Below, in pieces: positions 509-44,141 of a stretch of DNA of 64,000 nucleotides. Position 1 is the first letter of the stretch. The number at the start of each line of letters is the position of its first letter. The notes beneath the pieces were generated by a model. It made no database searches and was not told the DNA's origin. It worked only from the letters and a program-made list of their open reading frames with translations. Made by a program: the position numbers and the translations under genes. Source of the DNA: an uncultured bacterium (GTDB lineage: Bacteria > Fidelibacterota > Marinisomatia > Marinisomatales > JABMOV01); the NCBI GenBank assembly GCA_964344305.1, contig CAYFMT010000003.1:71790-135789 (forward strand). Reading direction: 5' to 3'.

Positions 509-543
509 AAAAAAAGAGTCCCGACACATGGTGTCGGGACTCT
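509..543 (-). terminator. Rho-independent terminator of the 569..2899 gene
   Basis: Perfect inverted repeat AGAGTCCCGACAC (515-527) / GTGTCGGGACTCT (531-543) with a 3-nt loop. On the minus strand it is followed by a T-run (A-run 509-514 on +). It lies 26 nt past the stop codon. Confidence 0.85.
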
Positions 544-568
544 TCATCATACAGATTGTGAGAGTTGG

Positions 569-2899: not shown

Positions 2900-2990
2900 T
2901 TGTCCTCCATTTAAGGGGTTGTTATTTCCTAGGAAATTATGTCTTGAATAATAGGAGTTTCGATTTAATTATTCAATGCATAATTCTGTC

Positions 2991-5105
2991 TTATCGTATT
3001 ACGATAAACTTTCTAAAGGCTGAATCTCCTTTTGCAAATATTATTTCGTTGGTCTCCTCATCTACAATGTCCTCCATCACTTCAAAATAGGCAATGTAAA
3101 CCCCGGATACGACTACCTGTCGATACATGGTGGTTGAGTTCCATGCCTGGTCCCCGCTACCATCTGTATGTTCAATTTCGTCGATGAGATCACCACGTTC
3201 CGTAAAAATCTTAATGATGCATTTCCCCGGGATATCGTAAAACATGATTTTATCCGATTCACCAAGAAACTGCATTTTATTGTTCGATATGTGGTAAGGA
3301 TTTGGTACAACGCGAATTTGATCCAGGGATGTTCCCTGCTGTCTTTTTAAAAAGGCCGGTTTATTTGTCTTGGTGTAGAATCGAGAACTGTGCAAGGGTC
3401 CTGAAGGATTTGTTTCACCGGTAGTATTTCCACTTCCATCAGTCACGGAGACAATGTAATAATAGTATGAAAAACCGCGAATAGCTGACTCATCTGCGAA
3501 TTCGTAAATACCTGCTGGACCAGAATACAGGAGTTCATGAACCGTATCGGGTTTGGCCACAGCACGGTAAATCTCATAGCCTTCAAAATTCGGATCAGAT
3601 TCGGAAGGGCTTGCAATCCAGGACAGGAAAATCTTATCACCACCAGACTCTACATTAAATACCGGAGGAGGCATGGGCGGTTGTGGAATATTGAACCCGG
3701 AATCATAATTCCGTTTTGCGCGACTGAATGTGAGAAGGATTGAATCTTTTCCTGTATAAACCCATGAATTCTTGAATTCATCTGCATTGGATGTGGTACC
3801 ACCACCCGGAAGTGTATATGAACCGGAAGCATTGTTGTAGGTTTCCCCAACCCATTCGCACATTTGCCTGGAGAGCCCGTTAATACCTTCTGCCTCCACA
3901 ATGGTGATACTCTCTCCGTGGGCCAAATCAAATGGACCATACGTCATCATCACATTGGTCCCTCCTTCATCATTGTGTACCGTTGATGGATCAATACCAG
4001 GATATGAATCATAGGCACCATGGATTTCATCCATTCGTGTGCTTCCACCCTTGTCGCTTCCTCCATACGGATTTCCACTTAACATGGAATATAACCGAGT
4101 CATGTTCAGAGCATCTGTTGGTTGAATGTTTCCCACGGATGGGTATGTGTCACCTGCATGCCATCCAAGGAATACAGGTTGCATGGCATCATCGCTGGTG
4201 TCAATGGGACTTGAATCCACATGAATAGTTACAGACCCGATATGATGAGGCGATGTCAATCGACCGGAACCAGACAGGATTGGCGCCCCAACATTATCAA
4301 AGGCATTGGACGGATTTTGTCCCAACCAGCTGAACCCGCATCGGAGCCACTCAAGTATCCCGGATGACTCAGTGATTACATCATTCTGGTGGAGTGAATA
4401 ATCTTCTCCACGTCTGGTGACCCACATGTGCTTTCCCCAGGATGCTGGACCACCGGCATACCATGAGGCTTCCCGGCTGCCACTATAGCGGGTTCCCCAT
4501 CCTATTCGTACGCCTTTTAATGAATCATTCAACTCAATATCCTTATCCCAATCCGTGTTTCCAGTATTGGTAAAGGTAAAGACCTTGATGAAGTAATTGT
4601 CGTGGTACTGTTGTGAAAATGCATATACCGTACGATTCATGGTCAATCCCATGGATGTATTGACAATATTCACTACTTTTCTATCTGAAGGAATACTGGG
4701 ATCCACCTCATCAATATCACCGAAATACACACTGGAAATATTGGAACCATCAACATAGACAGATGGTGGCTCAAATTTCGCGATCTGTTTTAACTCCATT
4801 GGGAACATACTGAGTCCAACATAACTCAGGGCATAATACAACCCGTAATTCTCCCAGGAATTACCTTTATCATCGGTGAAATCTTCACAAGCAATCCAGG
4901 ATCGCTTAATAACGGCATTATCCTGAAACGAATAATCTGCCGGCCAGCGCATACCTTCATAGTACGTGTTGTTCCAGGCACGTTCAGATCCCCAGGCAGA
5001 AATATGGCTCTGGAGTGAGCCTACACGGATATACCGCTTGTCTGTTTCATTGACCTGGGCAAATGATATCCCTGTAATAATAGTTAATAGTAAAATCTTC
5101 TTCAT
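2991..5105 (-). CDS. Secreted ~700-aa protein of unknown function with FN3-like domain and divergent T9SS-CTD-like tail (partner 1 of the adjacent TonB-dependent receptor)
   Basis: 704-aa ORF with signal peptide MKKILLLTIITGISFAQ. Conserved block YAFSQQYHDNYFIKVFTFTNTG is shared with the paralog at 11023..13095. FN3-like segment (FLSWIASPSESDPNFEGYEIYRA...YYYYIVSV). Tail is VVPNPY...IKIFTERGDLI...SGVYIAYFEV...KFIVIR. The start overlaps the upstream stop (TAATG at 5103-5107). Confidence 0.8.
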   Translation of the reverse strand: MKKILLLTIITGISFAQVNETDKRYIRVGSLQSHISAWGSERAWNNTYYEGMRWPADYSFQDNAVIKRSWIACEDFTDDKGNSWENYGLYYALSYVGLSMFPMELKQIAKFEPPSVYVDGSNISSVYFGDIDEVDPSIPSDRKVVNIVNTSMGLTMNRTVYAFSQQYHDNYFIKVFTFTNTGNTDWDKDIELNDSLKGVRIGWGTRYSGSREASWYAGGPASWGKHMWVTRRGEDYSLHQNDVITESSGILEWLRCGFSWLGQNPSNAFDNVGAPILSGSGRLTSPHHIGSVTIHVDSSPIDTSDDAMQPVFLGWHAGDTYPSVGNIQPTDALNMTRLYSMLSGNPYGGSDKGGSTRMDEIHGAYDSYPGIDPSTVHNDEGGTNVMMTYGPFDLAHGESITIVEAEGINGLSRQMCEWVGETYNNASGSYTLPGGGTTSNADEFKNSWVYTGKDSILLTFSRAKRNYDSGFNIPQPPMPPPVFNVESGGDKIFLSWIASPSESDPNFEGYEIYRAVAKPDTVHELLYSGPAGIYEFADESAIRGFSYYYYIVSVTDGSGNTTGETNPSGPLHSSRFYTKTNKPAFLKRQQGTSLDQIRVVPNPYHISNNKMQFLGESDKIMFYDIPGKCIIKIFTERGDLIDEIEHTDGSGDQAWNSTTMYRQVVVSGVYIAYFEVMEDIVDEETNEIIFAKGDSAFRKFIVIR

Positions 5106-8100
5106 TAGAACTCTACCGTAAAACCAAACACGATATTTCTAGGGTTCAGAAATGTCACTGATCTCAGATTTGGCATATCTATATACGCATTTGTGTCGAG
5201 TATTTCCTGCTCTTCATCTGTTAAGTTATCGGGATCCACCGGGTCAAAGGCTCTGTAGGGAATATCATCCTCACGATATTTGCCCACTCGATCCGATCCC
5301 TTTTGAGATCCCTCCTCCCAATCAAAGCGAAGCGATTCCATATAAGCCAGGTAATCATAATTATCTGAGAAGCCAGCAGAATTGAGGTATTTATTATTGG
5401 TAACATTGGATATGTCCACGTATACCCTGAATCTGGATTTTTGAATCTCAAATGTCCGTGCAAGACGGAAGTCCAGATACCACTCATCTTTCCATTGAAC
5501 ATCATCCACAATGCCGGGTCTCTGATAAGGATTGTATGTATCATAACGCCCTGTCTCGTAATAGAAAATGTTGCTGAATACCCAGTTCTCTGCCGGCCTG
5601 ATACCAAATATTCTTGGACCAAATGAGTTCGGTGTCGTAAAGTTCATTACTGCATTTACATGGGGCTGGTAATCATGCCGAATGAGCTTTCGATTAACAA
5701 TATCCGATTCACGCTGAAGATTGGGGTCTTCGTAATAATTTGTAAAACCAAAATACCCTGACGTCTTTGATATATAGGTGAAATTGACGAAACCAGACAG
5801 AAAATCACCATGGACTTTTTCCAGGGTGAATTCAAAACCTCTGATATCCTCATAATTGTTGTTCGCTGCCTGGTTGTACTTCACAGAATTATTCAGATTC
5901 TGGTAGGTTATCCAGCCAATCTGGCCTGAAACATCTTTATAATATGCCACAAGGTTTATCAAATAGTCGTCATAAAATACCTGGGAATATCCAAGCTCGT
6001 ATGAAATGGTTTTCTCATACCTCAGGTTTGGGTTCCCAAGATTGGTAACGATACCATTTGATTCACGCTGGATGCCAAATCTGTACTGAGTACCCGGTTC
6101 GGAATAAAAATGTCCATAATTAAAGAACAATTTGGATACATCTGTCACTGGGAATGAGACACCAAGCCTTGGATGGAGTGAAAACTGTAGCTCTGATTCT
6201 TCCGTCTGGACTGAGTCTTCGATATCGTGACCCAATCCCTGACTCAGGTTTTTGTCATAAGGGTCCAGTGTATAAACAACAGTATTGGAATTGGATACCT
6301 CTCCACGCAACCCAATATTTGCAACAAATCCTTCGTACTCCATCTTATCCTGTGCATAAAGGGATAGTCGAAATGGCTGTACATTATACACCAGCGCACG
6401 ATTCCAGGTGGACATTCCAGGATTGCTGGCAAATGAATACACATCCAGGTTATTCTGGACGTACTCGAACCCGGTCTTGACCTGGTTTCGATTGTTCAGC
6501 TGATCGGCATAATCTGCTTTGATGATGAAACGTGAGTCCCTGGATTTATCCCTGCCAATATTCATCCATCCACCGATATTCATTCCATCAATGCCGGTCA
6601 CGCCATATCCCCAGTAACCGAATGGAGCCTCATCTACAAAATATCCATTGAATAATTCATGGGATTTTGCTGTATCCCGCAACGCGGTCTGGTACGTTTT
6701 GTAATAGGTTTTGCTCACCTGTGTCAGAATTTCGAAATACCGAGTTGAGCTGAGCATATGGGTGTATTTCATTCCATAGCCGGACATGAATATGGTGGTA
6801 GGTGAATAGTATCCGGGCATATAAATGATGCTGTTCCCACTGGAACTGTTAAGCAGGTTGGCTACAGACTGATCTGACTGCAACACATATCCTGTTGGAG
6901 TTGTGGTCCAGTTGTAGGGTGAAACCGAATGGGTTTCACCATAATTCCCAAGGATCATTAAATCAGCATTCTCGCTAATGTCCATATTCAACTTTAACCG
7001 TGTAGTCCAGCTGTTGTATCTGTCTTTGGAGAGAGGAAAAATATACATGGATTTTTCTGAATAATGAGTCAGATAAAACCTTGGGTTAAGTGCTTCAGGT
7101 CCGGGGATCGGTCCACCTATGGCAATATCATAGGTTCGGTCAGGTTCAGTGATATCCCCTTTCCGTCGATGTTCCCAGATGAATAACCGTTGTGCCTGCT
7201 CGGGAGAAAGGTCATTGTCCGGGTCAGCATCACCGAGTGTAGTTTCTGACACCACATTCCACCCTTCAAATTGTGGGTATTGGGCTTCAGTGTAATCATC
7301 CCAGACACCATTTTCCGTACCCGTCCAGCAAACGGCTGTATCCAGATATGGTCTCAAGAAATAGGAATCAGGATCAAAGACGGAGGGGCCAAAATGTTTG
7401 GGTCCTGCAGGTCTGTACTGTACAGCCATGGACCCGTGAAATCGATCCGGTCTACCTTCCTTGTTAACAATATTGATGATTCCAGAACGAATATTTCCAT
7501 ATTCTGCATTGAACCCACTGGATATAACCTGGATCTCTGATACACCCAGCAGCGATGTTGTGGTTACAGGAGAAAAACTTCTGGAGGTGTTTTGGAGAAA
7601 CCCATCCACATATACACCTGTCTGGGTAGAAGAACTGCCACGGATGGATAACCCATTCACACCGGCCTGCAAACCAATCACCTGATTGATATGATTTACA
7701 GGGATTTTTTCAATGACATCATCGGAAATATTGATTTTGCTTGAGGATACATCCGTTTCCACATAAGATCGTTCAGCGGTGACTGTCACTTCTGCCAGAC
7801 CAAGGGTCTCAAGCTGAAGCTGTCGATTGATGGTGGTTGTTTGATCGATATAGACAGGAACATCCTGGACAATAACATTTGTATACCCAATCATCTGGAT
7901 ATTCAGTGTGTATTCGCCCGGCGGGATATTCAATATGACAAAATGTCCGTTTGCATCCGTAACAGACCCGAGCTGGGTCTCGGAAAGGTAGATATTTACT
8001 CCTGGTAGTGGCTCTCCATTCTTATCGTCAGTGATGGTTCCGCCAATTTTACCCGTAATTCCAGCAAAGGTGACGGTCACCATCAAAACCAAAATAGTGC

Positions 8101-8119
8101 TTATTTTGGTTTTCACCAT
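5105..8119 (-). CDS. TonB-dependent outer-membrane receptor with N-terminal CarboxypepD_reg-like domain (TBDR 1)
   Basis: CarboxypepD_reg-like GKIGGTITDDKNGEPLPGVNIYL..ANGHFVILNIPPGEYTL. Plug-like IGLQAGVNGLSIRGSSSTQTGVYVDG. Long barrel ending in an aromatic residue (FGFTVEF). I moved the start from track position 8176 to ATG 8119 (MVKTKISTILVLMV, signal-like), 10 nt after the upstream stop. Confidence 0.85.
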   Translation of the reverse strand: MVKTKISTILVLMVTVTFAGITGKIGGTITDDKNGEPLPGVNIYLSETQLGSVTDANGHFVILNIPPGEYTLNIQMIGYTNVIVQDVPVYIDQTTTINRQLQLETLGLAEVTVTAERSYVETDVSSSKINISDDVIEKIPVNHINQVIGLQAGVNGLSIRGSSSTQTGVYVDGFLQNTSRSFSPVTTTSLLGVSEIQVISSGFNAEYGNIRSGIINIVNKEGRPDRFHGSMAVQYRPAGPKHFGPSVFDPDSYFLRPYLDTAVCWTGTENGVWDDYTEAQYPQFEGWNVVSETTLGDADPDNDLSPEQAQRLFIWEHRRKGDITEPDRTYDIAIGGPIPGPEALNPRFYLTHYSEKSMYIFPLSKDRYNSWTTRLKLNMDISENADLMILGNYGETHSVSPYNWTTTPTGYVLQSDQSVANLLNSSSGNSIIYMPGYYSPTTIFMSGYGMKYTHMLSSTRYFEILTQVSKTYYKTYQTALRDTAKSHELFNGYFVDEAPFGYWGYGVTGIDGMNIGGWMNIGRDKSRDSRFIIKADYADQLNNRNQVKTGFEYVQNNLDVYSFASNPGMSTWNRALVYNVQPFRLSLYAQDKMEYEGFVANIGLRGEVSNSNTVVYTLDPYDKNLSQGLGHDIEDSVQTEESELQFSLHPRLGVSFPVTDVSKLFFNYGHFYSEPGTQYRFGIQRESNGIVTNLGNPNLRYEKTISYELGYSQVFYDDYLINLVAYYKDVSGQIGWITYQNLNNSVKYNQAANNNYEDIRGFEFTLEKVHGDFLSGFVNFTYISKTSGYFGFTNYYEDPNLQRESDIVNRKLIRHDYQPHVNAVMNFTTPNSFGPRIFGIRPAENWVFSNIFYYETGRYDTYNPYQRPGIVDDVQWKDEWYLDFRLARTFEIQKSRFRVYVDISNVTNNKYLNSAGFSDNYDYLAYMESLRFDWEEGSQKGSDRVGKYREDDIPYRAFDPVDPDNLTDEEQEILDTNAYIDMPNLRSVTFLNPRNIVFGFTVEF

Positions 8120-8129
8120 AATGGCGACT

Positions 8130-9431
8130 CTAGAGTGAACGCCCGTGGTAAGGAGCACCCAAACGATCCATATCAACTCGATAAGGACCTTTTACTTCCG
8201 TCGGACTATAATCCCAGGTCACACCATCGGGTGGTACGGCAGAATTCTGGTTGTTTATGTACAGATATTTATCATTACCCCATGACATCTTTGATCCTGG
8301 AGCTTTGAACACTTCCTGGTAAAACGGTTCAGGTGTCGTGTATGGTGCCTGAACTAAATACAGGCCAGGTCCGAGACATTCATAGCAGGATGGATCCATA
8401 TAGTCAACACCAACAAACATATTTCCGCTTGCGTCAAAGGATAGATCCAACGGTTTGGTGGCATTGGCACCCAGGGCATCATCCCAGTCAATAACCAGTT
8501 CAGCAGGTGCCACAGAATCTGCTGAAATTATTTCGCATCTCCAGATACCATTTTGCACTGCCAGGGAATCATCTCCGGAGTAATCGCCTATCATGTAAAC
8601 ATAATCCTCAAACACACGAACAGAGTTAATCAGAATACCGTCCGGGAGAGTATCGGCAGGCACAAAATCAGTTTCACCGCTGTTAATGTCAATTTGATAT
8701 AATACATTTCGTTGGCCTCCTGCGTACAGAATGCCTGTAGAAGCAAAATCAAGGGCGTAGGCTTTTGTTCTATTTGGTAGATCAGCCCAGGCATCTTCTC
8801 TCCCACCTTCTTCAATTGTGTACACACTCTTATGATTCATGGCCATGTAGTATGTATCTGAAGGTCCCAATCGGATGGCAAATGCCTGGAGCCTTGGTGA
8901 GTAGTCACCGAATTCAAGCGAATCCACTTCACCATTGGAGAACACTCTGTATAGTATCTTATTGGATCGATCGGAAATGACCATATTCTCATCATTATCG
9001 ATTTCCAATCCCCAGAGGTTTGTACCCAAAGGATCAAACGTACCCCACTTAATTACAGGCGGGTACAATCCATAATTGTTCCATTCTCCAAATTCATAGG
9101 CACCTATAACGGCTACCTGGATTTTCACACTATCTGCCACAATATTGGGAGCCTTCACTACAAGCTCAGTCGCTGATGCTGACTGGACAATCCCTGTCGT
9201 CCCATTAAAGTAAACCAGGTTCTGATCCACTCTGGTGGAAAAATTCTGTCCCGTTATGGTAACGATTCCAATACCGGAAAAAGCAGAATCAGCAGGGGAC
9301 ACATTAGAAATAGTGGGGTCAGGAAGGACTTCCGGATTTTCTGAATAAATATTGTCTGGATAATCAGGTTCCTCACAAGAGAAGAAGCATCCTGCCAATA
9401 TGATAAGTGTGATGATAGGGATACGATTCAT
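8130..9431 (-). CDS. Lipoprotein with IPT/TIG-like Ig domain followed by beta-propeller-like region
   Basis: The track ORF extends to 9518, but ATG 9431 gives MNRIPIITLIILAGCFFSC (lipobox LAGC) and removes a 77-nt overlap. IPT/TIG-like ISNVSPADSAFSGIGIVTITGQNFS..VYFNG..ATELVVKAP. The remainder is repeat-rich (propeller-like). Confidence 0.75.
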   Translation of the reverse strand: MNRIPIITLIILAGCFFSCEEPDYPDNIYSENPEVLPDPTISNVSPADSAFSGIGIVTITGQNFSTRVDQNLVYFNGTTGIVQSASATELVVKAPNIVADSVKIQVAVIGAYEFGEWNNYGLYPPVIKWGTFDPLGTNLWGLEIDNDENMVISDRSNKILYRVFSNGEVDSLEFGDYSPRLQAFAIRLGPSDTYYMAMNHKSVYTIEEGGREDAWADLPNRTKAYALDFASTGILYAGGQRNVLYQIDINSGETDFVPADTLPDGILINSVRVFEDYVYMIGDYSGDDSLAVQNGIWRCEIISADSVAPAELVIDWDDALGANATKPLDLSFDASGNMFVGVDYMDPSCYECLGPGLYLVQAPYTTPEPFYQEVFKAPGSKMSWGNDKYLYINNQNSAVPPDGVTWDYSPTEVKGPYRVDMDRLGAPYHGRSL

Positions 9432-9441
9432 AAGATGACCT

Positions 9442-10464
9442 CTATAATGTGATTTGGAACGATAATTGTTGAACACTGTCAAAGATACCGAATGGTGTGA
9501 ACGCATAATCAATTCCAATGCCTGTATCTTTTCTTGCTACCTTGAAACCCACACCATATGTGAGACCACGTTCATCATAATTGCCGTAATAGCCTGTACG
9601 CAAATACAGAATACTCAAAGGATTGTATTCAATACCGATATGGGTCCTTTCGGAATAGGATCTGGGATGAAGTGCATCCACGGATAGCATGAATTTTGAA
9701 TCACGGTTCAATGGTGACTTAAGAAATGATAAAAATATAAAATCAGATAAGTCAATGGATGCACCAATGGAGAATGTTAATGGAAGTTGAAATCCTTCTG
9801 TCTGGTATTTGATCTCCTGTGAGAAATTTCTTACCATCATCCCGAAGGAAAAATCGTTCCAACCAGTTTCATAAAGCGTTCCAAAATCATACGCTAATGT
9901 GGATGCCCAGTTACGAATAACCTGATTGGTGGTATCCGTTTCAGGAACAACACTTCTGCCAAGATACTGATACGTGGATTTAATATGACCGCCAATTGAA
10001 AATTTATCTGAAAGTGACCTGGCATATCCCACACCCACAGCCAGAGCTGTTGGCTCAAAGATTTCTGTATCAATGTATCCCGGTTCATTGTTCCACACCA
10101 TGGTTCCCTGAACCTCGCCGTAATCCACTGACTGAACACTCAATGCAAATACGCCGAAATATCCATTATTGGGAGCAAAACCAACGCTTGCGGTGATATG
10201 GTTAATCCCAGCAATGAATTGATTCTGGCTGAAATTGGCAGATAACAGTTGTGTTGATCTGGCCATTCCAGCAGGATTAAAAAATACGGCATTGGATTGA
10301 CCTTTCATGGTGGTCATTGCTTCACCCATCCCCGTTGCTCGAGCATCAGAGGCTACACTCAGGAATTGAAATCCTGTTTGAGCCAGTTTGATATCTTCCG
10401 ACAGACCAATAGACAGGACGCTTAGTAGGATGAACCCATTTTTAAATATCTGTTTAGTGATCAT
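9442..10464 (-). CDS. PorV/PorQ-family-like outer-membrane beta-barrel protein
   Basis: 340 aa with a signal peptide. N-terminal TGFQFLSVASDARATGMGEAMTTM..NAVFFNPAGMA matches the hallmark PorV-family opening (..FL.I..DAR..GMG.A......NPA). Alternating beta-strand pattern; ends in a hydrophobic residue (..SFQITL; not the classic terminal Phe). Confidence 0.6.
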   Translation of the reverse strand: MITKQIFKNGFILLSVLSIGLSEDIKLAQTGFQFLSVASDARATGMGEAMTTMKGQSNAVFFNPAGMARSTQLLSANFSQNQFIAGINHITASVGFAPNNGYFGVFALSVQSVDYGEVQGTMVWNNEPGYIDTEIFEPTALAVGVGYARSLSDKFSIGGHIKSTYQYLGRSVVPETDTTNQVIRNWASTLAYDFGTLYETGWNDFSFGMMVRNFSQEIKYQTEGFQLPLTFSIGASIDLSDFIFLSFLKSPLNRDSKFMLSVDALHPRSYSERTHIGIEYNPLSILYLRTGYYGNYDERGLTYGVGFKVARKDTGIGIDYAFTPFGIFDSVQQLSFQITL

Positions 10465-10467
10465 AGC

Positions 10468-11010
10468 TTATTCCTTATTGAGTATAACCATTGCGAAACC
10501 GGAAGCATTCTCCATGATGAACTCAGTGAGATAATATCCTGTCGTGAGAGTATATTCCTGTCTGAATGCAATGTCTTCACTGCAATCAGCGACAGTTTCC
10601 AGATCCATCGCCATGTTTGTTACATCTGCAATTGTGTTATCGGCATCCCTTAGATTTATCTTCAGGTTTTTATTTGTATAAACAACATAATCACCTGCGG
10701 AAGATATCTGAATCACCGAATAACTGGTATCTGCACTTTTCGATACTTTAATCAACGTATCCGGGTAAAAAAGAATTTCAGCATTCCACGCTATTAAGGA
10801 ATCGATCCTCTCAGCGTTCCCGGTCCCAGAAGCATTGAGTGACAGTGAATCTTCCAATGCCAGTGATGGGAATTGATTAAAGGTGGTATCTGCCATGAAC
10901 ACGCCACACGCAGCACCATCCATTTCAGAAATCTCGTAGTCCTCATCCATATAATTATCACAGGAAATGATTAGCAAAGCTCCAATGATAATGTAACCTA
11001 TGTACTTCAT
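10468..11010 (-). CDS. Small lipoprotein, unknown function
   Basis: 180 aa. Lipobox in MKYIGYIIIGALLIISCDNY. No recognisable motifs. Separated from its neighbours by 3 and 12 nt. Confidence 0.65.
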   Translation of the reverse strand: MKYIGYIIIGALLIISCDNYMDEDYEISEMDGAACGVFMADTTFNQFPSLALEDSLSLNASGTGNAERIDSLIAWNAEILFYPDTLIKVSKSADTSYSVIQISSAGDYVVYTNKNLKINLRDADNTIADVTNMAMDLETVADCSEDIAFRQEYTLTTGYYLTEFIMENASGFAMVILNKE

Positions 11011-11022
11011 ACTTCTTTTCCT

Positions 11023-13095
11023 TTATCGGATAACGATGAATTTTTTAATTCCGGTGGACCCTTTTTCCACAAACTCTCCTGTTTTCCAGTCCGTGAAATC
11101 ATCCAGCACTTCGAAATGGGCAATATATAATCCTGACACCACCACCTGTCTTGAGGATGTAATGCTATTCCAGGCTTCATCGCCGCTTCCATCGGTATGA
11201 TCTATGGTATAAACCAGATCACCTCTTTCGGTAAATATCTTGATTCGGCAGGTGGGTGGAATATCCAGGAACATAATACGGTCAGGACCTCCATCCCCGT
11301 ACTGTAAATCCCTTGCCTTAATATTGTAAGGATTGGGAACAATCCGAATCCTGTCAAGAGTACCGGGTTGACGTTTCAGGAATGCAGGTGTATTTGTTCG
11401 TGTATAAAACAGGCTGCTCTCCATGGGTGTGCCAGGTGAGACATCATTCAATGAACCATCACTTACAGTTGTGACATAGTAATAATAATCAAAGCCACGG
11501 ATAGCCGATCGATCCTCGTAAATGGTTTCTCCAGGACCCAGCTCAGCAATGAGTTCAAATGTTGTATCCGGTACATGAATGGCCCTATACACATTGTACT
11601 CTGCAAAGGATGGATAGCTTTCGGCTGTGGCACTCCATTCAAGAATAATTCTGTCACCTCCTGAAGTAACCTGGAACAGATCAGGCGGAGGTGGTTCATG
11701 GGGCACATTGGATCCAGACTGCCATAGATCGTATGTATTCTGGGCACGTGTAAATGCCTGAAACAGAGAATCCTTTCCGGACATGACCAATTCATTTTTC
11801 TGTGTATTGCTGATAGCACCGCTAAGCCAATCGGCACCAACGGAATAATGTTTATCCCTGGACAAGCCGGCAACAGCCTCCACGGTCACAATGACAATAC
11901 TATCCCCTGGTGCCATATCATATGGACCGTACCCTCTACCCAGTGAATATCCTCCACCGGTGGATCCAAACTCATCTGCGTTGTCATCACCCACTTCCTC
12001 GGCATGACTCAAATTTGGGTGACCGGAACTCATGAGCAGGTATTCATCTGTCATTTTAGCCGCATTCAGGTGATTATTTCCGGAATTATAAGGACCATCT
12101 GAATCAGGGTAAGGAGTGGATGTAGGTTGATTTGGATCGTTGGAATGATCAGAAGGAGATACATCTGCATGAATAGTCATGACACCTACAAATTGTGAAG
12201 CCCCTAGTCGACCATCTCCTCCTGTATTTATATTTGGCGCTCCAATATTATCCCCGGAGCCGCTCCAACCTGAATGCAATCCATGCCAGGCGTAGGATGC
12301 CCTGAATGGAACCGATGTTCCTGCAGCATAATTACCATTTTCACCAATGACTTCATTCATGGTATTCCGACCCCAGGTGGCATTCTGCGGCATCCAGTAA
12401 TACCCGTAAGAACAGGCTTCCTTGGTCATGGCATATCGTTCCTGCCAGAAAATGTACACATCATCCAGCGTTAGACTGTGTGTGCTTCCACTAGTATTAT
12501 ATACACCGGTATTCTTAAACACATATTCCACGATATAATAATTGTCATGATAGGGTTGACTATAGGCATGGACTTTCCGGGTCATTGTGATACCCGTACT
12601 TGTGTTCAATGTGTTAATGATCATTCTGTCACCGGGAATGTTTTCATTCACATCATCTACCAGATCCGTGTAATCCAGTTCTGAGGCAGGCAGACCATCC
12701 ACGTACACTTGAGGGCGGGGATATCGCGCTACCAAACGAAAATCTGTTGGCATGAACTCTGACAATTCATCCAGAACCCTGGGACCTACATGAACCACTT
12801 TGTATTCATATTGTATCCCTGCAACAGGGTCGTTGTAATTCTTTGTCCCTATCCATAAGGCTTTCGCCGCTTTTACATCCTGATACCGAAATTGAGCCGG
12901 CCACATGAGACCATCCTGCTGATCAGGAATGAGATGACGGCGTCCCACTTCTATTTCACAGCCACCGCTGCTGAACCAGTCATGCAGCTGTCCAACAGAT
13001 ATCCAGCGGGATTCATCTGCCATGAGGATTGATGCTACCATGAGGAATAGGAGAATGGATAATCTTTTCATGTTTTTCATTGGGGTTACTTTCAT
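11023..13095 (-). CDS. Secreted ~700-aa protein of unknown function with FN3-like domain and divergent T9SS-CTD-like tail (partner 2; paralog of 2991..5105)
   Basis: 690 aa with signal peptide (MKRLSILLFLMVASILMA). Shared block HAYSQPYHDNYYIVEYVFKNTG. FN3-like (ILEWSATAESYPSFAEYNVYRA..YYYYVTTV). Tail is IVPNPY...IKIFTERGDLV...SGLYIAHFEV...KFIVIR. ATG lies 8 nt after the TBDR 2 stop. Confidence 0.8.
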   Translation of the reverse strand: MKVTPMKNMKRLSILLFLMVASILMADESRWISVGQLHDWFSSGGCEIEVGRRHLIPDQQDGLMWPAQFRYQDVKAAKALWIGTKNYNDPVAGIQYEYKVVHVGPRVLDELSEFMPTDFRLVARYPRPQVYVDGLPASELDYTDLVDDVNENIPGDRMIINTLNTSTGITMTRKVHAYSQPYHDNYYIVEYVFKNTGVYNTSGSTHSLTLDDVYIFWQERYAMTKEACSYGYYWMPQNATWGRNTMNEVIGENGNYAAGTSVPFRASYAWHGLHSGWSGSGDNIGAPNINTGGDGRLGASQFVGVMTIHADVSPSDHSNDPNQPTSTPYPDSDGPYNSGNNHLNAAKMTDEYLLMSSGHPNLSHAEEVGDDNADEFGSTGGGYSLGRGYGPYDMAPGDSIVIVTVEAVAGLSRDKHYSVGADWLSGAISNTQKNELVMSGKDSLFQAFTRAQNTYDLWQSGSNVPHEPPPPDLFQVTSGGDRIILEWSATAESYPSFAEYNVYRAIHVPDTTFELIAELGPGETIYEDRSAIRGFDYYYYVTTVSDGSLNDVSPGTPMESSLFYTRTNTPAFLKRQPGTLDRIRIVPNPYNIKARDLQYGDGGPDRIMFLDIPPTCRIKIFTERGDLVYTIDHTDGSGDEAWNSITSSRQVVVSGLYIAHFEVLDDFTDWKTGEFVEKGSTGIKKFIVIR

Positions 13096-13103
13096 GATAG
13101 ACT

Positions 13104-16100
13104 CTAAAAATTGTACGTGAAGTTGATTCCGAAGAAAATATCCCTGGGATACAGGAAAGTAAAGTATGTCTGATTTGGCATGTCAATATATGCTTTAGTT
13201 TCCAGCACTTCATCAACAAAAGAATCTTTCGCTTCTACCCAGGTCCCATTTGAATACTGGTAGTACGTCTCTTCGGTTTGATCCCAGTAAAGTGCTCGTT
13301 CATTTGGTGAACTGAGGTTCACAACATTGGGGACAGATTCTATGGGTTGAAATGCCACATCTTCATCACGAACATCGCCCGGTTGATCTTCTCCAGGAAT
13401 ATTACCGTACCCTAGATCATCTCCCTTGGAAGCTGGAAGATGTAATGATTGCATATAGAAATCATAATCATAGCTGTCTTCAAATGATTCTCTGGAAAAC
13501 TGTTTGAGGTTGAGCACGTTGTTCACTTCAGCAAAAAGCTTGACCGAGAAATTCTTCAATCTCAATACACGCGATACCTTCAAGTCCAATCCATAGGAAT
13601 CTTTCCACTGAAGATTGTACTGAATTCCACGGATATTATTTGGGTTGTAGGTGAACCAGGACCCACTTGTCCAACGACCAATGAAGTTTGCATTCCACTC
13701 TGCCAGTGGACGGAATCCGGCAATCTGAGGTCCAAAGTCTGATGGGGTAAAGAATGTGACATAGCTTTTTGCTCTTGGAATGGGCAATGGCTTGGCTTGA
13801 TAGGAATTATTCTTTTCATAATCCGCTTGATCGCTTGGATTCTGGTAGACTCGACCCAAATCAAAATACCCTGATGTAGAAACGCGGTACTCGTAATTCA
13901 CCATACCTGTAAACCAGTCACCAAATCTCTTACTCAATTCCACTTCAAATCCGCGAATATCCTCATACAGATTATTCGTCATGACGTAAGAATTGATCTT
14001 GCCGTCTGAGCTGATGATCCGTGTCCAGTCCTGCTCATTAGATACATCTTTATAATAGGCTGATAGATGCAGCAGGTACATATCCGAAAAAGCTCTGTCA
14101 AAACCAAGTTCATATGAAATGGTCTGAGCAGGATCAAGGCTTGGGTTTCCAAGATAGGAAATGGCGCCTACGCTGTTACGTTGTATACGATACGCTGCTT
14201 CTGATGTTGGAGATTGATTGTAGTGTCCATAATTAAAATACAATTTTGATACATCTGTTAAAGGATGTGATATAGCCAGACGAGGACTCAAAGTTGTAAC
14301 GGGATCCGCTTTCTTTGCATAGTCGGAATTCCACACATCATCCTCATCATAATAATAGAAATCCTTGTCAAAATTCTCGAATGTGAACCACTTTCCACTT
14401 GGATTGTAATATTCACCATTCAACCCAAGAATGGCTACCAGTCCTCGGAATTCTATTTTGTCCTGGATATAAGTATTCAATCGATTCGGATTCACCGAAA
14501 ATTCAGACCATCTATTACCTTCGGGCAGGACTTTATTGATTGACCCAAATTTCATGTCGATATTGTAAGAAATGAATTCAAATCCAGCCTTGATCTGATT
14601 GTTGGGTGTGATTTGATTTGTATAATCCCCTGCCAAGCTCACTGAAGATACTTCCGTGGAGTCCCTTGCAGTGGAAATGGGGCCACCCAGAGTGATTCCT
14701 CCATCCACGCTTGAGAGGAATTCCTGCTCAAACCCAAATGGTTGCTCATCGAGGGAAAATCCTGGGAATATTTCTGTCAGATCTACTGTATTCCTGAAAC
14801 GTCCCGGACCGGTTCGATAGGAGTTAAACGTTCGTTGAAGCCGAACCTCGTAAAAACTTTTCGAGGTGAGAATATGAGATAGTGTTACCCCGTAAGTGGA
14901 GTTAAAACGTTCCGTTTCAGAATAATAGTCATTGGTAAAAATTCTCCATGGAACCGTAAACCCAGTACGATCCGTAATGCTTGCAACTCCAGATACTGAT
15001 GTGAAATATGAGGTCCCCCCGGTGCGGGAAGCATTGGTAGCCGTTAACCCATTCCATAGTGCGGATACGGATAGTTTCATGTTATCAGAAATATCTGATG
15101 TAAGCTTCAACACATTGCCATAGGAATTCAAACCATCTGTTGAAAGCGGAAACAGGTATTGAGTGGATTCCTGGATTCGGGAATAATAGAATCGAAGATT
15201 ACCCAACATGGGACCGATAACAGGAATAGGACCGCCAAACCCAAAATCCATATTGATATCAGGTTTATGGATATTCCCATCCTTTCGGTATTGCCATTCG
15301 AAAATTCGTTTTGCAGCCGCTGGTGTTAAATCGTTGGTTGGATCATCATCTGACAACGTAGCCTGCGAGATAGCTATCCACCCATCGAAAGAGGTGAATT
15401 GTCGTTCATCGTATTCATCCCAGTTTGCGTTGGATGAACCATACCAGGCAGTAGAATCACTTAAATAAGGATATAGCCAGAATGAATTGGCACTGTAAAC
15501 GGATTCTCCAAAATGTTTCGCTGCAGGTGGGCTGTATTTATAGGTGAATGTACCAGAATACCTATCTGGATCCCCTTCTTTTGCCACCACATTGATAATT
15601 CCACCACGTACATTGCTGTATTCAGCATTAAACCCACCGGTTTGTACAGATACCTCCTGAATGGAGCTCAAGGGAATCCCTGTTACTGGTGCATCATTTC
15701 GTGCATCCCTGAGGGCAACACCATCCAGCATGAGCATGGTTTGATCAGAACCGCTTCCGCGAATACCAAGAGAAGATGTGATCCCTGCTTTCAACCCAAC
15801 TACCTGGCCCAGACTTGAGACTGGCAATTCCTCAATTTCATCTCCCGTAACACTGAGTTGACTTGCAGCAACATCCACTTTGATGACTCTATTTTGTGCA
15901 ATGACTTCAACACCTTCACCTTCAAGAATCTCTGTTTCAAGTGGCACGTCAATTGAGGTGGTTAAATCGATCTCAACACGGACTTCTTTTACGGTTGTAC
16001 GCTTGTAACCGATCATGGATACCGTGAGGTCATAATCACCGGGAGGAACATTTAAAATGGTATAATATCCTTCTATATCCGTAGCCGTACCCAAATACGT

Positions 16101-16259
16101 ATCTGTTACAACGATATTTACACCTGCCAGACCTTCACCGGTTTGTGCATCTGTAATTCGTCCCGAAATTTTTCCGGTAGTACCGGCCAGAAGTATGGAT
16201 GAAAGAAGTAAAAAGTAAGCGAAAAACGAAATTCTATTTTTTGTCATAGGACATTCCAT
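13104..16259 (-). CDS. TonB-dependent outer-membrane receptor with N-terminal CarboxypepD_reg-like domain (TBDR 2; paralog of 5105..8119)
   Basis: 1051 aa. GKISGRITDAQTGEGLAGVNIVV..EGYYTILNVPPGDYDL. Plug-like VGLKAGITSSLGIRGSGSDQTMLMLDG. C-terminal FGINFTYNF. Alternative start at ATG 16247 (MTKNRISFF). Confidence 0.85.
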   Translation of the reverse strand: MECPMTKNRISFFAYFLLLSSILLAGTTGKISGRITDAQTGEGLAGVNIVVTDTYLGTATDIEGYYTILNVPPGDYDLTVSMIGYKRTTVKEVRVEIDLTTSIDVPLETEILEGEGVEVIAQNRVIKVDVAASQLSVTGDEIEELPVSSLGQVVGLKAGITSSLGIRGSGSDQTMLMLDGVALRDARNDAPVTGIPLSSIQEVSVQTGGFNAEYSNVRGGIINVVAKEGDPDRYSGTFTYKYSPPAAKHFGESVYSANSFWLYPYLSDSTAWYGSSNANWDEYDERQFTSFDGWIAISQATLSDDDPTNDLTPAAAKRIFEWQYRKDGNIHKPDINMDFGFGGPIPVIGPMLGNLRFYYSRIQESTQYLFPLSTDGLNSYGNVLKLTSDISDNMKLSVSALWNGLTATNASRTGGTSYFTSVSGVASITDRTGFTVPWRIFTNDYYSETERFNSTYGVTLSHILTSKSFYEVRLQRTFNSYRTGPGRFRNTVDLTEIFPGFSLDEQPFGFEQEFLSSVDGGITLGGPISTARDSTEVSSVSLAGDYTNQITPNNQIKAGFEFISYNIDMKFGSINKVLPEGNRWSEFSVNPNRLNTYIQDKIEFRGLVAILGLNGEYYNPSGKWFTFENFDKDFYYYDEDDVWNSDYAKKADPVTTLSPRLAISHPLTDVSKLYFNYGHYNQSPTSEAAYRIQRNSVGAISYLGNPSLDPAQTISYELGFDRAFSDMYLLHLSAYYKDVSNEQDWTRIISSDGKINSYVMTNNLYEDIRGFEVELSKRFGDWFTGMVNYEYRVSTSGYFDLGRVYQNPSDQADYEKNNSYQAKPLPIPRAKSYVTFFTPSDFGPQIAGFRPLAEWNANFIGRWTSGSWFTYNPNNIRGIQYNLQWKDSYGLDLKVSRVLRLKNFSVKLFAEVNNVLNLKQFSRESFEDSYDYDFYMQSLHLPASKGDDLGYGNIPGEDQPGDVRDEDVAFQPIESVPNVVNLSSPNERALYWDQTEETYYQYSNGTWVEAKDSFVDEVLETKAYIDMPNQTYFTFLYPRDIFFGINFTYNF

Positions 16260-16384
16260 GCTTTTATTAGAATTGTGTTAGAGGAAGTTTTTATGAAATT
16301 GCCTGATAAATTTGTTGAAAATACCCAACCGAACCACAAATTTCAAGACAATGAGTTCTGATTTGATATAATCCGATTTCATGG

Positions 16385-18405: not shown

Positions 18406-18449
18406 AGTATTGTAATTTATTGTGAGAAAAAGATATAAAGACAGGAAAG

Positions 18450-18857
18450 ATGCGACTAAAAACTATTCTTCTATTCTTCTCCCTGATGGTTATTTCATGC
18501 TCCACAAAAGAAGCGGAAAACCGGGTAGTAGAGACGTCATATCCAGACGGAACTCCAAAGCTGGTTCGCGTGTGCTATCCGGACTCAGTTAGCTTTGTAG
18601 AAATAAACTATTTCTATAACGGTATTAAAGAGAGGGAACGGACCCTAAAAAATGGGTACCCTCACGGTGCATGGAAAGAGTGGCATAAAAACGGTCAACT
18701 CAAGTTTGACAAATACTATAAAAATGGTGAGATGGATGGATCACAGAAAGCCTGGTATATGGATGGATCCATTTTCTTTGAGTCAATTTACGATAATGGA
18801 TCCCTGCTTAACCGGACCGTTTATAATCATGACGGATCCATTAGATCAACCAGGTAG
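18450..18857 (+). CDS. MORN-repeat-variant (YwqK-family-like) lipoprotein
   Basis: 135 aa. Lipobox LMVISCS. Repeats NGYPHGAWKEWHKNGQLKFDKYYKNGEMDGSQKAWYMDGSIFFESIYDNG. Confidence 0.7.
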   Translation: MRLKTILLFFSLMVISCSTKEAENRVVETSYPDGTPKLVRVCYPDSVSFVEINYFYNGIKERERTLKNGYPHGAWKEWHKNGQLKFDKYYKNGEMDGSQKAWYMDGSIFFESIYDNGSLLNRTVYNHDGSIRSTR

Positions 18858-18872
18858 CTGATTCAATATTAT

Positions 18873-19682: not shown

Positions 19683-19803
19683 TTTATTATTCTTATATAG
19701 ATTCTTATTGCCGGGTAAAAAAATAGACATGGGGAAAAACTACTAAACCTTTTATTTTTTCAGTCCAAATTATGACGAATAACCGATATTAACAGGAAAA
19801 TAA

Positions 19804-22488: not shown

Positions 22489-22489
22489 T

Positions 22490-23764: not shown

Positions 23765-23771
23765 GGACGTT

Positions 23772-44136: not shown

Positions 44137-44141
44137 ATCAG

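Follow-up and report, generated by a model that had tools for sequence, protein, structure and literature searches.

Organization of the operon

The window, a 64,000-nucleotide stretch of DNA from an uncultured member of the Fidelibacterota (contig CAYFMT010000003.1), contains a real, tightly packed operon. Seven open reading frames run from 16259 to 2991, all on the minus strand, as do the other features of the locus described below. Our check of the reading frames recovered each of them, and every junction between them, as in the initial annotation, which had described seven co-directional genes with gaps of no more than 12 nt. The genes that it listed are thus all present, but the operon is read from 16259 downwards, so the pair it had called TBDR1 and partner1 comes first. 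In order of transcription, the products are a TonB-dependent transporter (TBDR-A), its partner (partner-A), a small lipoprotein (l), a PorV-like barrel (V), a second lipoprotein (I), and a paralogous transporter and partner (TBDR-B and partner-B). We refer to the transporter and partner families as T and P.

The junctions are short throughout. TBDR-A and partner-A are separated by 8 nt (13096-13103), partner-A and l by 12 nt (11011-11022), and l and V by 3 nt (10465-10467). The V/I and I/TBDR-B gaps are 10 nt each (9432-9441 and 8120-8129), given ATG starts at 9431 and 8119, both of which yield good signal peptides. TBDR-B and partner-B overlap in a TAATG stop/start (5103-5107).

An eighth gene, N (2899 to 569), is very probably part of this operon because it begins 91 nt beyond partner-B with its own GGAGG site, occurs in the conserved block at 45 loci, and is followed by the sole strong terminator. 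This intrinsic terminator (513..545), which would close the operon, consists of a 15-bp stem, of which 8 pairs are G-C, and a T-run after it, lies 24 nt past the N stop codon, and is the only strong one that the minus strand has from 16259 down to 500. The seven genes of the proposed seven-gene operon stand, but the count is most likely eight. The 125-nt gap before TBDR-A (16260..16384) is the presumed promoter site. It contains no Rfam riboswitch, and a sigma-70-type scan returned one 9-of-12 match (TTGAAA-17-TATTTT, 16346..16318, minus strand). Across the region there were 28 such matches compared with 47.8 in shuffled sequence, so none is significant and no promoter was identified. The block sits among housekeeping genes.

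The transporters lie outside the SusC family

Both TBDRs are true TonB-dependent transporters. TBDR-A (13104..16259, 1051 aa) comprises a signal peptide, a CarboxypepD_reg domain (Pfam, residues 31-118), a TonB-box-like strand, a plug (residues 128-215) and a beta-barrel ending in F. TBDR-B (5105..8119) is 1004 aa long when read from the ATG at 8119; for the identical contig, the gene caller had placed the start 13 codons further upstream. The two share 38% identity over their full length and both carry CarboxypepD_reg and Plug, in agreement with the reading of them as paralogs built to one plan. The Plug model PF07715 scores 31.0 and 27.4 bits in the two TBDRs (Pfam cutoff 23.9), and CarboxypepD_reg and Plug are found in 26 out of 26 T family members.

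The barrel was recognized from the family and from structure. Neither PF00593 nor PF14905 matched the window's own TBDRs, and among the 26 members PF00593 matched three (best E 1e-23) and PF14905 two. Searched as a profile, the T family matches Cir, PqqU, YncD and PfeA in their plug regions and PhuR over part of its barrel. The AF2 model of TBDR-A (pLDDT 84.8, pTM 0.81) retrieves more than 40 solved TonB-dependent transporters (TBDTs) in Foldseek, with E values of 1e-23 to 1e-18 and TMt up to 0.78. These family matches and the predicted fold together identify a C-terminal TBDT barrel.

Between the N-terminal domain and the plug runs a strand with the family consensus GExVxVxA, in which V119 is nearly invariant and A121 invariant across 43 homologues. 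It reads VEVIA in TBDR-A (residues 117-121, 15897..15911) and VTVTA at the expected position in TBDR-B (residues 111-115, 7775-7789). From position and motif, we consider both TonB-box-like. The SusC family model TIGR04056 scores 62.3 and 66.2 bits against a cutoff of 368.25, and the match is limited to model positions 2-133, corresponding to the N-terminal domain. The TMt is 0.47-0.51 to SusC chains compared with 0.6-0.78 to siderophore and B12 transporters (classical TBDTs). Both proteins are thus placed outside the SusC family.

The partners form a previously unclassified family

Partner-A (11023..13095, 690 aa) and partner-B (2991..5105, 704 aa) are paralogs with 40% identity. They belong to a previously unclassified family of ~700-residue proteins that are neither SusD-like nor lipoproteins. 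Each of the two has a three-domain build, with a supersandwich-like domain at the N terminus, FN3 in the middle and a T9SS type-A tail that is homologous, though divergent. In partner-A, a Sec signal peptide precedes the N-terminal beta-rich domain (28-465), FN3 (470-548) and a C-terminal beta-sandwich (583-690). The initial annotation had noted a common YSQ motif, an FN3-like segment and tails of 108 aa; the YSQxYHDNY motif is present at residues 178-186 in A and 163-171 in B, and the two tails (583-690 and 597-704, the latter at nt 2994-3317) have the same length.

Partner-A has 817 homologues. No Pfam or NCBIfam family matched either window partner, in line with the earlier view that the partners fall in no recognized family. 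Neither a SusD family match in the window proteins or 45 homologues nor a SusD among the Foldseek matches was found, and the partner-A AF2 model (pLDDT 87, pTM 0.83) is beta-rich, which bears out the claim that they are unrelated to SusD. A lipobox-like motif is present in only 7 of 135 P members and is read as spurious. Taken together, the missing Pfam match, the beta-rich model and the absence of a lipobox place P outside SusD/RagB.

Foldseek matched partner-A only to GH94-type N-terminal supersandwich domains and FN3. Structurally, the N-domain is only weakly similar to carbohydrate-related folds (TM 0.22-0.27 at full length, rmsd of at least 9 Å). Family models and Foldseek returned no catalytic domain or enzyme family, so the profile search suggested by the initial annotation brought up neither SusD nor a characterized enzyme. 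Apart from N195, Q323, K433, D442 and S443, the residues kept across all N-domain architectures are mostly G, P and W, and no obvious catalytic acid pair is among them. The N-domain is also found fused to BNR/sortilin propellers or beta-helix repeats, and in proteins of >1000 aa with a Pfam-passing Por_Secre_tail. Solitary partners, with no transporter nearby, adjoin a sulfatase or a GDSL esterase.

The partner tail resembles a type IX sorting domain

The tail of partner-A (residues 583-690, 11026..11349) aligns with the canonical C-terminal domain (CTD) of the N family in hhalign with 93.9% probability (E 1.6e-7). Residues P587, N588, P589, G655, Y657, K685 and R690 are invariant, giving the motifs PNP, GxY and a terminal K/R, and the AF2 model has seven strands in residues 584-688. 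By beta-sandwich homology and by motif, the tail thus resembles a type-A CTD. This homology is visible at the profile level only. TIGR04183 and PF18962 gave no match at E <= 0.01 for either window partner, and among the 45 homologues one matched Por_Secre_tail (E 0.057) and seven CHU_C (best E 0.0019), all below threshold. The best match of a P tail to a curated model is that of the C-terminal 115 aa of partner-B to the PorZ C-terminus, and it is weak (E 2e-4). Because the tail fails all curated cutoffs and has insertions, it may not work as a T9SS signal.

Three other window proteins pass Por_Secre_tail, and therefore the organism carries T9SS type-A cargo signals. We infer from the sequences that P would be secreted by the T9SS and retained at the surface. 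Of the suggestion that partners are delivered by T9SS rather than by lipidation, the CTD homology and the lack of a lipobox hold, but the curated T9SS thresholds are not reached.

The barrel, the lipoproteins and the propeller protein

The locus encodes its own PorV-like barrel, as had been proposed. V (9442..10464, 340 aa) is an outer-membrane beta-barrel that scores 180.3 bits with the PorV/PorQ family model NF033709 (cutoff 90), covering positions 1-325 of 326, and its family profile matches F. johnsoniae PorV (6h3i_F, E 3.8e-15). It falls below the equivalog cutoffs for PorV (NF033710, 69 vs 250), PorQ (NF033711, 81 vs 220) and PorV2 (NF052325, 44 vs 325). V is thus a distinct paralogue within the PorV/PorQ family.

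The two lipoproteins, a 180-aa protein and one with an IPT domain and a propeller, were correctly recognized, and both have lipoboxes. The small lipoprotein l (10468..11010, 180 aa) has the lipobox LIISC followed by acidic residues; it has no match in Pfam, NCBIfam or curated models, and a homologue occupies the same slot at 38 loci. Lipoprotein I (8130..9431, 433 aa) combines IPT/TIG (Pfam TIG, 39-110) with an NHL/PknD-like beta-propeller. Its profile matches NHL/PknD-derived propellers and 3hrp, it is found in 63 loci, and its lipobox Cys is invariant. N (569..2899, 776 aa) joins an NHL/SGL beta-propeller (Pfam SGL, NHL) to a canonical T9SS type-A sorting domain (Por_Secre_tail 40.4 bits, cutoff 27; TIGR04183 41.3 bits, cutoff 23). 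The N gene contains an internal 1011-nt duplication.

The block is conserved across distant phyla

Six gene families, and only these, are found again and again in 84 loci, which represent at least six phylum-level lineages. The complete block spans several little-studied bacterial phyla, with occurrences in Fidelibacterota/Marinimicrobia, Calditrichota, KSB1, Ignavibacteriales, WOR-3 and Delongbacteria, with block proteins sharing >50% identity across phyla. Because it is conserved in dozens of distant genomes, the arrangement is beyond chance. The neighbourhood of transporter and partner is kept in related genomes, as anticipated: T lies directly before P in 120 out of 126 cases (median gap ~15 nt), with 76 A-A pairs, 44 B-B pairs and none mixed. 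V is located at most 3.5 kb downstream of an A-type partner in 62 of 67 loci. In two of the five exceptions (L029 and L031) V lies further downstream in the block, and the remaining three partners are without T as well. Extra T-P-V triplets occur at L020, L024, L025, L034, L037 and L038.

The distance matrices of TBDR-A and partner-A correlate with r = 0.94, the highest of all pairs. For the B pair, the mirror-tree analysis gave no cognate-specific signal (0.87 for TBDR-B with partner-B vs 0.88 for TBDR-B with partner-A). The 120/126 adjacency, the absence of mixed pairs, the TAATG overlap, the position of V in 62/67 loci, the triplets and the r of 0.94 lead us to regard T, P and V as functionally coupled. 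Of the block proteins, P is the best conserved, with a mean p-distance of 0.40-0.42 vs 0.45-0.46 for T. In SusC/D systems the opposite pattern between partner and transporter is expected. The conservation of P above T may reflect constraint from some role other than being a substrate-specific lid.

No conserved enzyme, CAZyme, regulator or inner-membrane transporter was found beside the block across the 84 loci, and therefore it is not a polysaccharide-utilization locus (PUL) in the strict sense, which combines a susC/susD tandem with CAZymes and a regulator. The label 'PUL-like' goes too far, given the same lack of conserved genes and the placement of the TBDRs outside SusC. Flanking genes for a hybrid sensor kinase and a GHL10 enzyme occur beside the block in one Melioribacteraceae genome.

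Comparison with known systems

We found no published description of such a block. It shares with SusC/SusD (RagA/RagB) a CarboxypepD_reg transporter followed directly by the gene of a coupled extracellular partner, further surface lipoproteins in the operon, and several paralogous modules per genome. It differs in that T fails the SusC model and is structurally no nearer to SusC than to other TBDTs, P is beta-rich with a T9SS-type tail and no lipid whereas SusD is a helical TPR protein, conserved CAZymes and regulators are lacking, and a PorV/PorQ paralogue is included.

Likenesses to T9SS attachment systems are of another kind. In the Porphyromonas attachment complex, PorZ is held by PorQ and PorU by PorV. 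SprB, a type-B CTD protein, has its PorP/SprF partner SprF encoded downstream. As in those systems, a CTD protein here has a dedicated barrel gene just downstream, with T-P-V triplets duplicated as units, and the uncleaved PorZ C-terminus is the best, though weak, curated match of the P tail. Unlike the block, however, none of them includes a TBDT, and V scores below the PorV and PorQ equivalog cutoffs as well as that of PorV2. In the HasA-HasR hemophore system the gene of a secreted protein likewise adjoins the TBDT that receives its ligand, but P is far larger and multi-domain, carries no T1SS signal but a T9SS-type tail, has no heme-related genes beside it, and occurs 1:1 with type-matched transporters.

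In concept, the block is also similar to the non-SusD lids of Bacteroides non-SusC TBDTs, such as BtuG, XusB and DUF4876, which are conserved neighbours predicted to capture substrate at the outer face (10.1101/2023.03.17.533168). Many of these lids have beta-rich folds, propellers for example. All lids described by Price, Deutschbauer and Arkin are lipoproteins (bioRxiv 10.1101/2023.03.17.533168), and P shows the adjacency of that group but not its lipobox. It also differs in belonging to another, uncurated family with predicted T9SS delivery, and the block is located mainly outside the class Bacteroidia (Fidelibacterota, Calditrichota, KSB1, Ignavibacteriales, WOR-3). Neither of the block's own lipoproteins, l and I, adjoins T in the usual gene order.

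A proposed TonB-powered uptake complex

On balance, we lean towards the locus encoding a self-contained TonB-powered outer-membrane uptake complex, with a T9SS-delivered surface partner as its cap and with auxiliary binders. TBDR-A and TBDR-B would each be co-translated with their cognate ~700-aa extracellular partner. P would be exported by Sec, cross the outer membrane through the T9SS by means of its type-A-like domain, and be kept on the cell surface as the capture or cap subunit of its own transporter, the job done in Bacteroides by SusD, BtuG and XusB. It is gene order that suggests P as a substrate binder sitting on the TBDR, and likewise V as its shuttle or anchor. Encoded just after P, V would most likely handle or tether it through the C-terminal domain, in the manner of PorQ-PorZ and PorV-PorU. 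The surface lipoproteins I and l and the T9SS-exported N may serve as auxiliary binders. The P-T and P-V contacts, the import activity and the nature of the substrate are thus predictions. Known uptake loci usually include an enzyme, a regulator or an inner-membrane transporter, and their lack of conservation here counts against uptake.

A possible but rather unlikely account is that P is a T9SS-secreted enzyme, or a released hemophore-like scavenger, acting away from T, which would import the product or ligand while V served P and N as their T9SS shuttle. Cleavage after export is the norm for canonical type-A CTDs, the N-domain occurs in free-standing T9SS proteins as well as in solitary partners, the fold is distantly related to glycoside phosphorylase domains, and an enzyme or specific binder is expected to be, as P is, the most conserved product of its block. 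However, the searches matched P to no catalytic domain or enzyme family, the conserved residues are mostly G, P and W and offer no obvious catalytic acid pair, and the strict type-matched adjacency and translational coupling suggest a 1:1 stoichiometry that is more typical of a complex. We find it more doubtful that the block is a T9SS-tied surface or envelope assembly (an attachment or anchoring platform, adhesion or a surface layer) in which the TBDR-like barrels act as anchors or signal transducers. T retains the hallmarks of an active TBDT (TonB-box-like strand, plug and full barrel), up to three or four T-P pairs occur per genome, as uptake systems but not core machinery multiply, and the accessory lipoproteins resemble surface binding proteins. 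An assembly would nonetheless fit the absence of conserved catabolic, regulatory and inner-membrane transport genes, the housekeeping surroundings, the >50% identity across phyla, T9SS features in four of the eight products (the PorV/PorQ barrel and three CTD-type proteins), and the weak likeness of the P tail to the uncleaved PorZ tail.

An ordinary SusC/SusD PUL, with a very divergent SusD overlooked when the sequence was read, is hardly credible and was rejected. The TBDRs do share CarboxypepD_reg with SusC and match TIGR04056 over that region, and the kinase and GHL10 enzyme flanking the block in the Melioribacteraceae genome would suit a PUL. The test results speak against it: the 62-66 bits vs 368, confined to model positions 2-133; a T structure that resembles SusC (TMt 0.47-0.51) no more than it does siderophore/B12 transporters (0.6-0.78); the confident beta-rich model of P, with neither a SusD/TPR match nor a lipobox; and the lack of a CAZyme conserved with the block.

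If the locus is an uptake complex, as we favour, its cargo would probably be an organic molecule that is either large or scarce, and a glycan is our leading guess. The resemblance of the P N-domain to the non-catalytic N-domain of GH94 phosphorylases hints at a glycan, as do the BNR/sortilin or beta-helix fusions, the IPT and NHL lipoprotein, and the sulfatase and GDSL neighbours of solitary partners. One genome has at least four modules (L020 and L086), which fits diversification by substrate.

Results

The operon lies entirely on the minus strand of the window. Its first gene in transcription order encodes a TonB-dependent transporter (TBDR-A, or T-A; 16259-13104, 1051 aa). It is followed by the genes for its ~700-aa partner (P-A; 13095-11023, 690 aa), a small lipoprotein (l; 11010-10468, 180 aa), a PorV-like barrel (V; 10464-9442, 340 aa), an IPT/propeller lipoprotein (I; 9431-8130, 433 aa), a second transporter (TBDR-B, or T-B; 8119-5105, 1004 aa) and its partner (P-B; 5105-2991, 704 aa). 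Successive genes are separated by 8, 12, 3, 10 and 10 nt, and the last two share a TAATG stop/start overlap. The initial annotation had described these same junctions in a seven-gene operon; the packing was borne out, but the operon probably extends further. A co-directional gene (N; 2899-569, minus strand, 776 aa) encodes a beta-propeller of NHL/SGL type that ends in a canonical T9SS type-A tail, and the 91-nt spacer that separates it from partner-B contains a GGAGG site. The sole strong terminator on the minus strand from 16259 to 500, an intrinsic-type 15-bp hairpin with a T-run (545..513), lies 3' of N, so the operon most likely comprises eight genes. The N gene carries a recent tandem internal duplication (871-1170 and 1882-2181, minus strand; 300-nt copies, 92% identical, spacing 1011 nt), which accounts for its 776 aa here compared with ~450 aa in most orthologues. 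An Rfam search for a riboswitch or other RNA control that could reveal the substrate returned nothing but a distant tRNA, and the upstream promoter region showed no clear conservation when compared with the nearest relatives.

Both transporters contain CarboxypepD_reg and Plug domains (Pfam) and are 38% identical over their full length. The barrels of the window transporters had no Pfam match; among 26 members of the family, three matched PF00593 (best E 1e-23) and two matched PF14905. The family profile matches Cir, PqqU, YncD and PfeA in the plug and PhuR in part of the barrel. The AF2 model of TBDR-A (pLDDT 84.8, pTM 0.81) matched solved TonB-dependent transporters with E-values of 1e-23 to 1e-18, and its TM-scores were 0.6-0.78 to siderophore/B12 transporters versus 0.47-0.51 to SusC chains. 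A conserved GExVxVxA strand occupies the expected place of the TonB box (VEVIA at residues 117-121 in A, VTVTA at 111-115 in B). With the SusC/RagA model TIGR04056 the score was no more than 62-66 bits (cutoff 368), confined to the N-terminal domain. Taken together, the domains, family profile, fold matches and TIGR04056 shortfall identify T-A and T-B as true TonB-dependent transporters outside the SusC family.

The two partners, which share 40% identity, are non-lipidated three-domain proteins with a Sec signal peptide and no lipobox, whose tail is a homologue of T9SS sorting domains. In a confident AF2 model of partner-A (pLDDT 87, pTM 0.83), the N-terminal domain (about residues 28-412) is beta-rich and is followed by a helical segment (413-460), FN3 (473-545) and a C-terminal domain for which seven strands are predicted (584-688). 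Foldseek comparison of this model with the PDB retrieved FN3 and a weak likeness to the non-catalytic N-terminal supersandwich of GH94 phosphorylases and of cyclic glucan synthase (E-values of 5e-8 to 1e-5, full-length TM 0.22-0.27), and neither SusD nor a catalytic domain. As no Pfam or NCBIfam family matched the partners and FN3 alone was matched in a PDB sequence-profile search, we ruled out that they are SusD proteins or known enzymes, in agreement with the initial annotation, which had found them unlike SusD and without a known family.

That annotation had also assigned a T9SS C-terminal domain to the partners, a claim that holds at the level of profile homology and fails at the curated cutoffs. 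The tail of N passes the curated models (PF18962, 40.4 bits, cutoff 27; TIGR04183, 41.3 bits, cutoff 23), and the organism bears T9SS type-A sorting signals on further proteins of the window. The partner tail matched Por_Secre_tail in 1 of 45 homologues and CHU_C in 7 of 45, all below cutoff, with the PorZ C-terminus as the best match to a curated model (E 2e-4). When its profile was aligned with that of the canonical N-family tail, the probability was 93.9% (E 1.6e-7), and PNP, GxY and terminal K/R positions are invariant. Based on this homology and these motifs, the partner tail is a divergent homologue of the T9SS type-A sorting domain and, judged from its sequence, a putative sorting signal. 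The tail is the best-conserved part of P (0.67 vs 0.56). One may argue that this is too conserved for a cleaved signal; the argument has no force because the canonical domain of the N family is equally biased (0.58 vs 0.49).

V is a PorV/PorQ paralogue, as had been proposed for this locus: it passes the PorV/PorQ family model (180 bits, cutoff 90) and none of the PorV, PorQ and PorV2 equivalogs, and its profile matches the solved Flavobacterium PorV (E 3.8e-15). In several lineages (homologous loci L009 1547-2554, L050 3625-4602 and L088 3277-4206; also L019, L021, L044 and L048), a second, distant paralogue of the PorV family, sharing 27-28% identity with V, is encoded ~2 kb upstream of the block; the window has none there. 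I is a lipoprotein that combines an IPT domain with an NHL/PknD-like propeller, and l is a lipoprotein of no recognisable family. Acidic residues typically follow the lipobox Cys in l, I and the 338-aa lipoprotein that takes the same slot in Neomarinimicrobiota; such residues are a mark of surface export in Bacteroidota.

The wider window is ordinary chromosome, with genes for SecA, AspRS, ATP synthase and fatty-acid metabolism. Immediately before the operon (16385-25616) are genes resembling those of peptidoglycan turnover and recycling: an AmiA-like amidase (16385-17221), a beta-lactamase-fold protein (17203-18405), GT2 (19804-21297), a ROK-like protein (21298-22488), SpoIID (22457-23764) and an MFS permease (23772-25616). 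NamZ adjoins the block in one Fidelibacterota locus (L008), and the only cultured Fidelibacterota strain (Fidelibacter) feeds on exogenous muropeptides (PMC11652737). We did not adopt a role in the uptake of peptidoglycan fragments. These neighbours are missing in Calditrichota, Ignavibacteriales and WOR-3, and any link to the transporter block is therefore speculative. Elsewhere, the window encodes two predicted T9SS cargo proteins, one of 1194 aa with three CarboxypepD_reg repeats and Por_Secre_tail (28326-31910, minus strand) and one of 1118 aa with cohesin-like and MAM-like regions and FlgD_ig/Por_Secre_tail (44322-47678, minus strand). It also encodes an unusually long 1560-aa fusion of an AMP-binding (acyl-CoA synthetase-like) enzyme with a C-terminal GNAT acetyltransferase domain (39454-44136, plus strand), whose gene stops 4 nt short of a convergent tRNA-Leu (44141-44224, minus strand).

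Partner-A has 817 homologues in a 90%-clustered protein collection, the best 120 of which are 51-100% identical; where they are named at all, it is as 'fibronectin' or 'hypothetical'. A scan of species-representative genomes confirmed at least 572 matching stretches. The best 80 of these belong to Fidelibacterota, Neomarinimicrobiota (Marinimicrobia), Calditrichota (including a MAG labelled Caldithrix abyssi), KSB1, Melioribacteraceae/Ignavibacteriales, WOR-3 and Delongbacteria. Among the matches listed, a Fidelibacterota MAG (81% identity) is the closest relative with a name, and the window probably derives from that lineage.

We placed the eight window proteins on 84 loci, across which the whole block recurs with a few variants of order: T-P-(l)-V-I-(N)-T-P-(N), T-P-V-T-P-I-N and T-P-T-P-V-I-N. 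In 120 of 126 cases a transporter gene lies immediately 5' of the partner gene (median gap ~15 nt), and the pairs are always of matching type (76 A-A, 44 B-B, none mixed). The adjacency claimed from the window alone is thus conserved. The initial annotation had named a SusD-like or enzymatic partner and a loss of this adjacency as outcomes that would speak against it; we looked for both and observed neither. Of 67 loci, 62 have V no more than 3.5 kb downstream of the A-type partner. In two of the remaining five (L029 and L031) V still belongs to the block but is farther downstream, and in the other three the partner stands alone, with no transporter either. In inheritance, duplication and arrangement, T, P and V behave as one unit, and T and P are translationally coupled. 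An extra T-P-V triplet is found in six loci (L020, L024, L025, L034, L037 and L038), which suggests that the triplet is the unit of duplication, and one MAG has at least four modules (L020 and L086). In these KSB1 and Melioribacteraceae genomes the extra triplet, with a PorV-like gene, is a third and more divergent one that adjoins the standard block, and Melioribacteraceae have one PorV-like gene per transporter-partner pair.

Clustering all flanking ORFs of the 84 loci against each other recovered P (84), T (77), V (70), I (63), N (45) and l (38) as recurring families, and no recurring enzyme, regulator or inner-membrane transporter. The sole PUL-like regulatory or enzymatic context that we saw is in a complete Melioribacteraceae genome (L006), where a Reg_prop/Y_Y_Y sensor kinase and a GerE response regulator (2743-6548) precede the block and a GHL10 enzyme with a T9SS tail (21301-22064) follows it. 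The mean p-distance is 0.40-0.42 for P versus 0.45-0.46 for T, so P is the better conserved; the opposite order would be expected of SusC/D systems. Mirror-tree correlations are 0.94 for the A pair versus 0.87-0.88 for the B pair, a support for co-evolution of the A pair only that is not decisive.

The partner N-terminal domain (query residues 28-465) was searched against 1.84 billion cluster representatives and retrieved 454 proteins at E <= 1e-3, including 160 at E <= 1e-30. Beyond the ~700-aa form, it occurs before Chlam_PMP/beta-helix repeats and a tail in proteins of 1450-1600 aa (P0122, P0135 and P0247; 1476-1604 aa), and between a BNR/sortilin propeller and a tail in proteins of 1050-1275 aa (P0149, P0151 and P0179; 1091-1275 aa). 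Por_Secre_tail was matched in all seven long proteins scanned, in four of them above the Pfam cutoff, across both architectures. Loci L089-L091 represent these long proteins, two of which were located, both as stand-alone genes with no neighbouring transporter. Solitary ~700-aa partners with neither a transporter nor a PorV-like neighbour are found at L042 (9968-12049), L045 (9959-12079) and L064 (9965-12073), the last two in the same MAG. Beside them are genes for a sulfatase with an F5/8 domain, a NAGPA-CTD protein, a GxDLY/GDSL esterase and a PfkB kinase. Because it is found in proteins with Por_Secre_tail and near other CTD proteins, the domain can be regarded as a T9SS cargo module, and the genes and domains that accompany it are suggestive of glycans. 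The residues conserved in all architectures are mostly G, P and W, together with N195, Q323, K433, D442 and S443; no obvious catalytic acid pair is among them, a mild argument against an enzyme.

Discussion

Bacteroidota take up glycans, peptides, vitamins and siderophores through TonB-dependent transporters with surface lids. To our knowledge, all lids described so far are lipoproteins. The reading that we favour, with some reservation, is that the block encodes a TonB-dependent uptake complex with an extracellular partner delivered by T9SS. P would cross the outer membrane via T9SS and be kept on the surface, bound to its own T, which it would cap or serve as a capture subunit. V may act as the shuttle or tether of P, by analogy with PorZ-PorQ, PorU-PorV and SprB-SprF, in which T9SS cargo is held by a cognate barrel; I, l and N may be accessory binders, and the cargo could be a large organic molecule, possibly a glycan. 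Several observations count against such a complex: the partner tail scores under the curated T9SS cutoffs, conservation is stronger in P than in T, only the A pair gives a specific mirror-tree signal, and no catabolic genes accompany the block. We put forward more tentatively a stronger version, in which the block is an ancient, phylum-spanning alternative to SusCD. Here the T9SS-exported lid would be held non-covalently by a dedicated PorV/PorQ paralogue via an uncleaved CTD, and the A and B pairs and the two propeller proteins would form one hetero-oligomeric surface complex. If so, the block would be a main entry route for large nutrients in Marinimicrobia/Fidelibacterota, Calditrichota, KSB1 and Ignavibacteria, and the first instance of T9SS building part of an import machine.

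Among the alternatives, P could be a secreted enzyme or released scavenger and no bound lid at all, as its stand-alone relatives and strong conservation might suggest; P has no catalytic signature, however, and is paired strictly 1:1 with T, and we regard this as unlikely. We give still less weight to a non-import surface assembly or one related to T9SS: the many T9SS-type components and a context free of enzymes and regulators fit it, whereas T retains the full anatomy of a transporter and the modules are multiplied inside genomes. That the block is a cryptic SusCD PUL is scarcely credible, since family scores, fold and lack of a lipobox all refute it.

The favoured uptake complex would work much like SusCD, with a transporter and a surface partner, although the transporters fall outside SusC and the partners outside SusD. 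It would likewise resemble the non-SusD lipoprotein lids of Bacteroides, such as BtuG, XusB and DUF4876 (bioRxiv 10.1101/2023.03.17.533168), except that P is not a lipoprotein. The pairing of P with V is similar to that of T9SS cargo with cognate barrels, but those known systems lack a transporter. A transporter with a surface partner is known; what is new is the uncurated partner family, its apparent delivery by T9SS and the resident PorV paralogue. We found no prior description of the block in open-access full texts, including papers on Caldithrix, Melioribacter, Fidelibacter and Marinimicrobia; subscription-only literature was outside the search.

The block is real and strongly conserved, and it apparently lacks an earlier description. 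It indicates a different assembly route, with a partner from T9SS that is possibly tethered by a PorV paralogue. It is retained at >50% protein identity across abundant, poorly understood lineages, among them Calditrichota, KSB1, Ignavibacteria and, in the dark ocean and subsurface, Marinimicrobia/Fidelibacterota; how these lineages take up high-molecular-weight substrates is largely unknown. The hypothesis is accessible via cultured carriers, that is Caldithrix abyssi (by the label of its MAG) and relatives in Melioribacteraceae and Fidelibacterota, and the eight-gene block can serve as a marker for genome annotation. A ~700-aa 'fibronectin/hypothetical' family with hundreds of members and no Pfam/NCBIfam model thereby gains a concrete proposed role.
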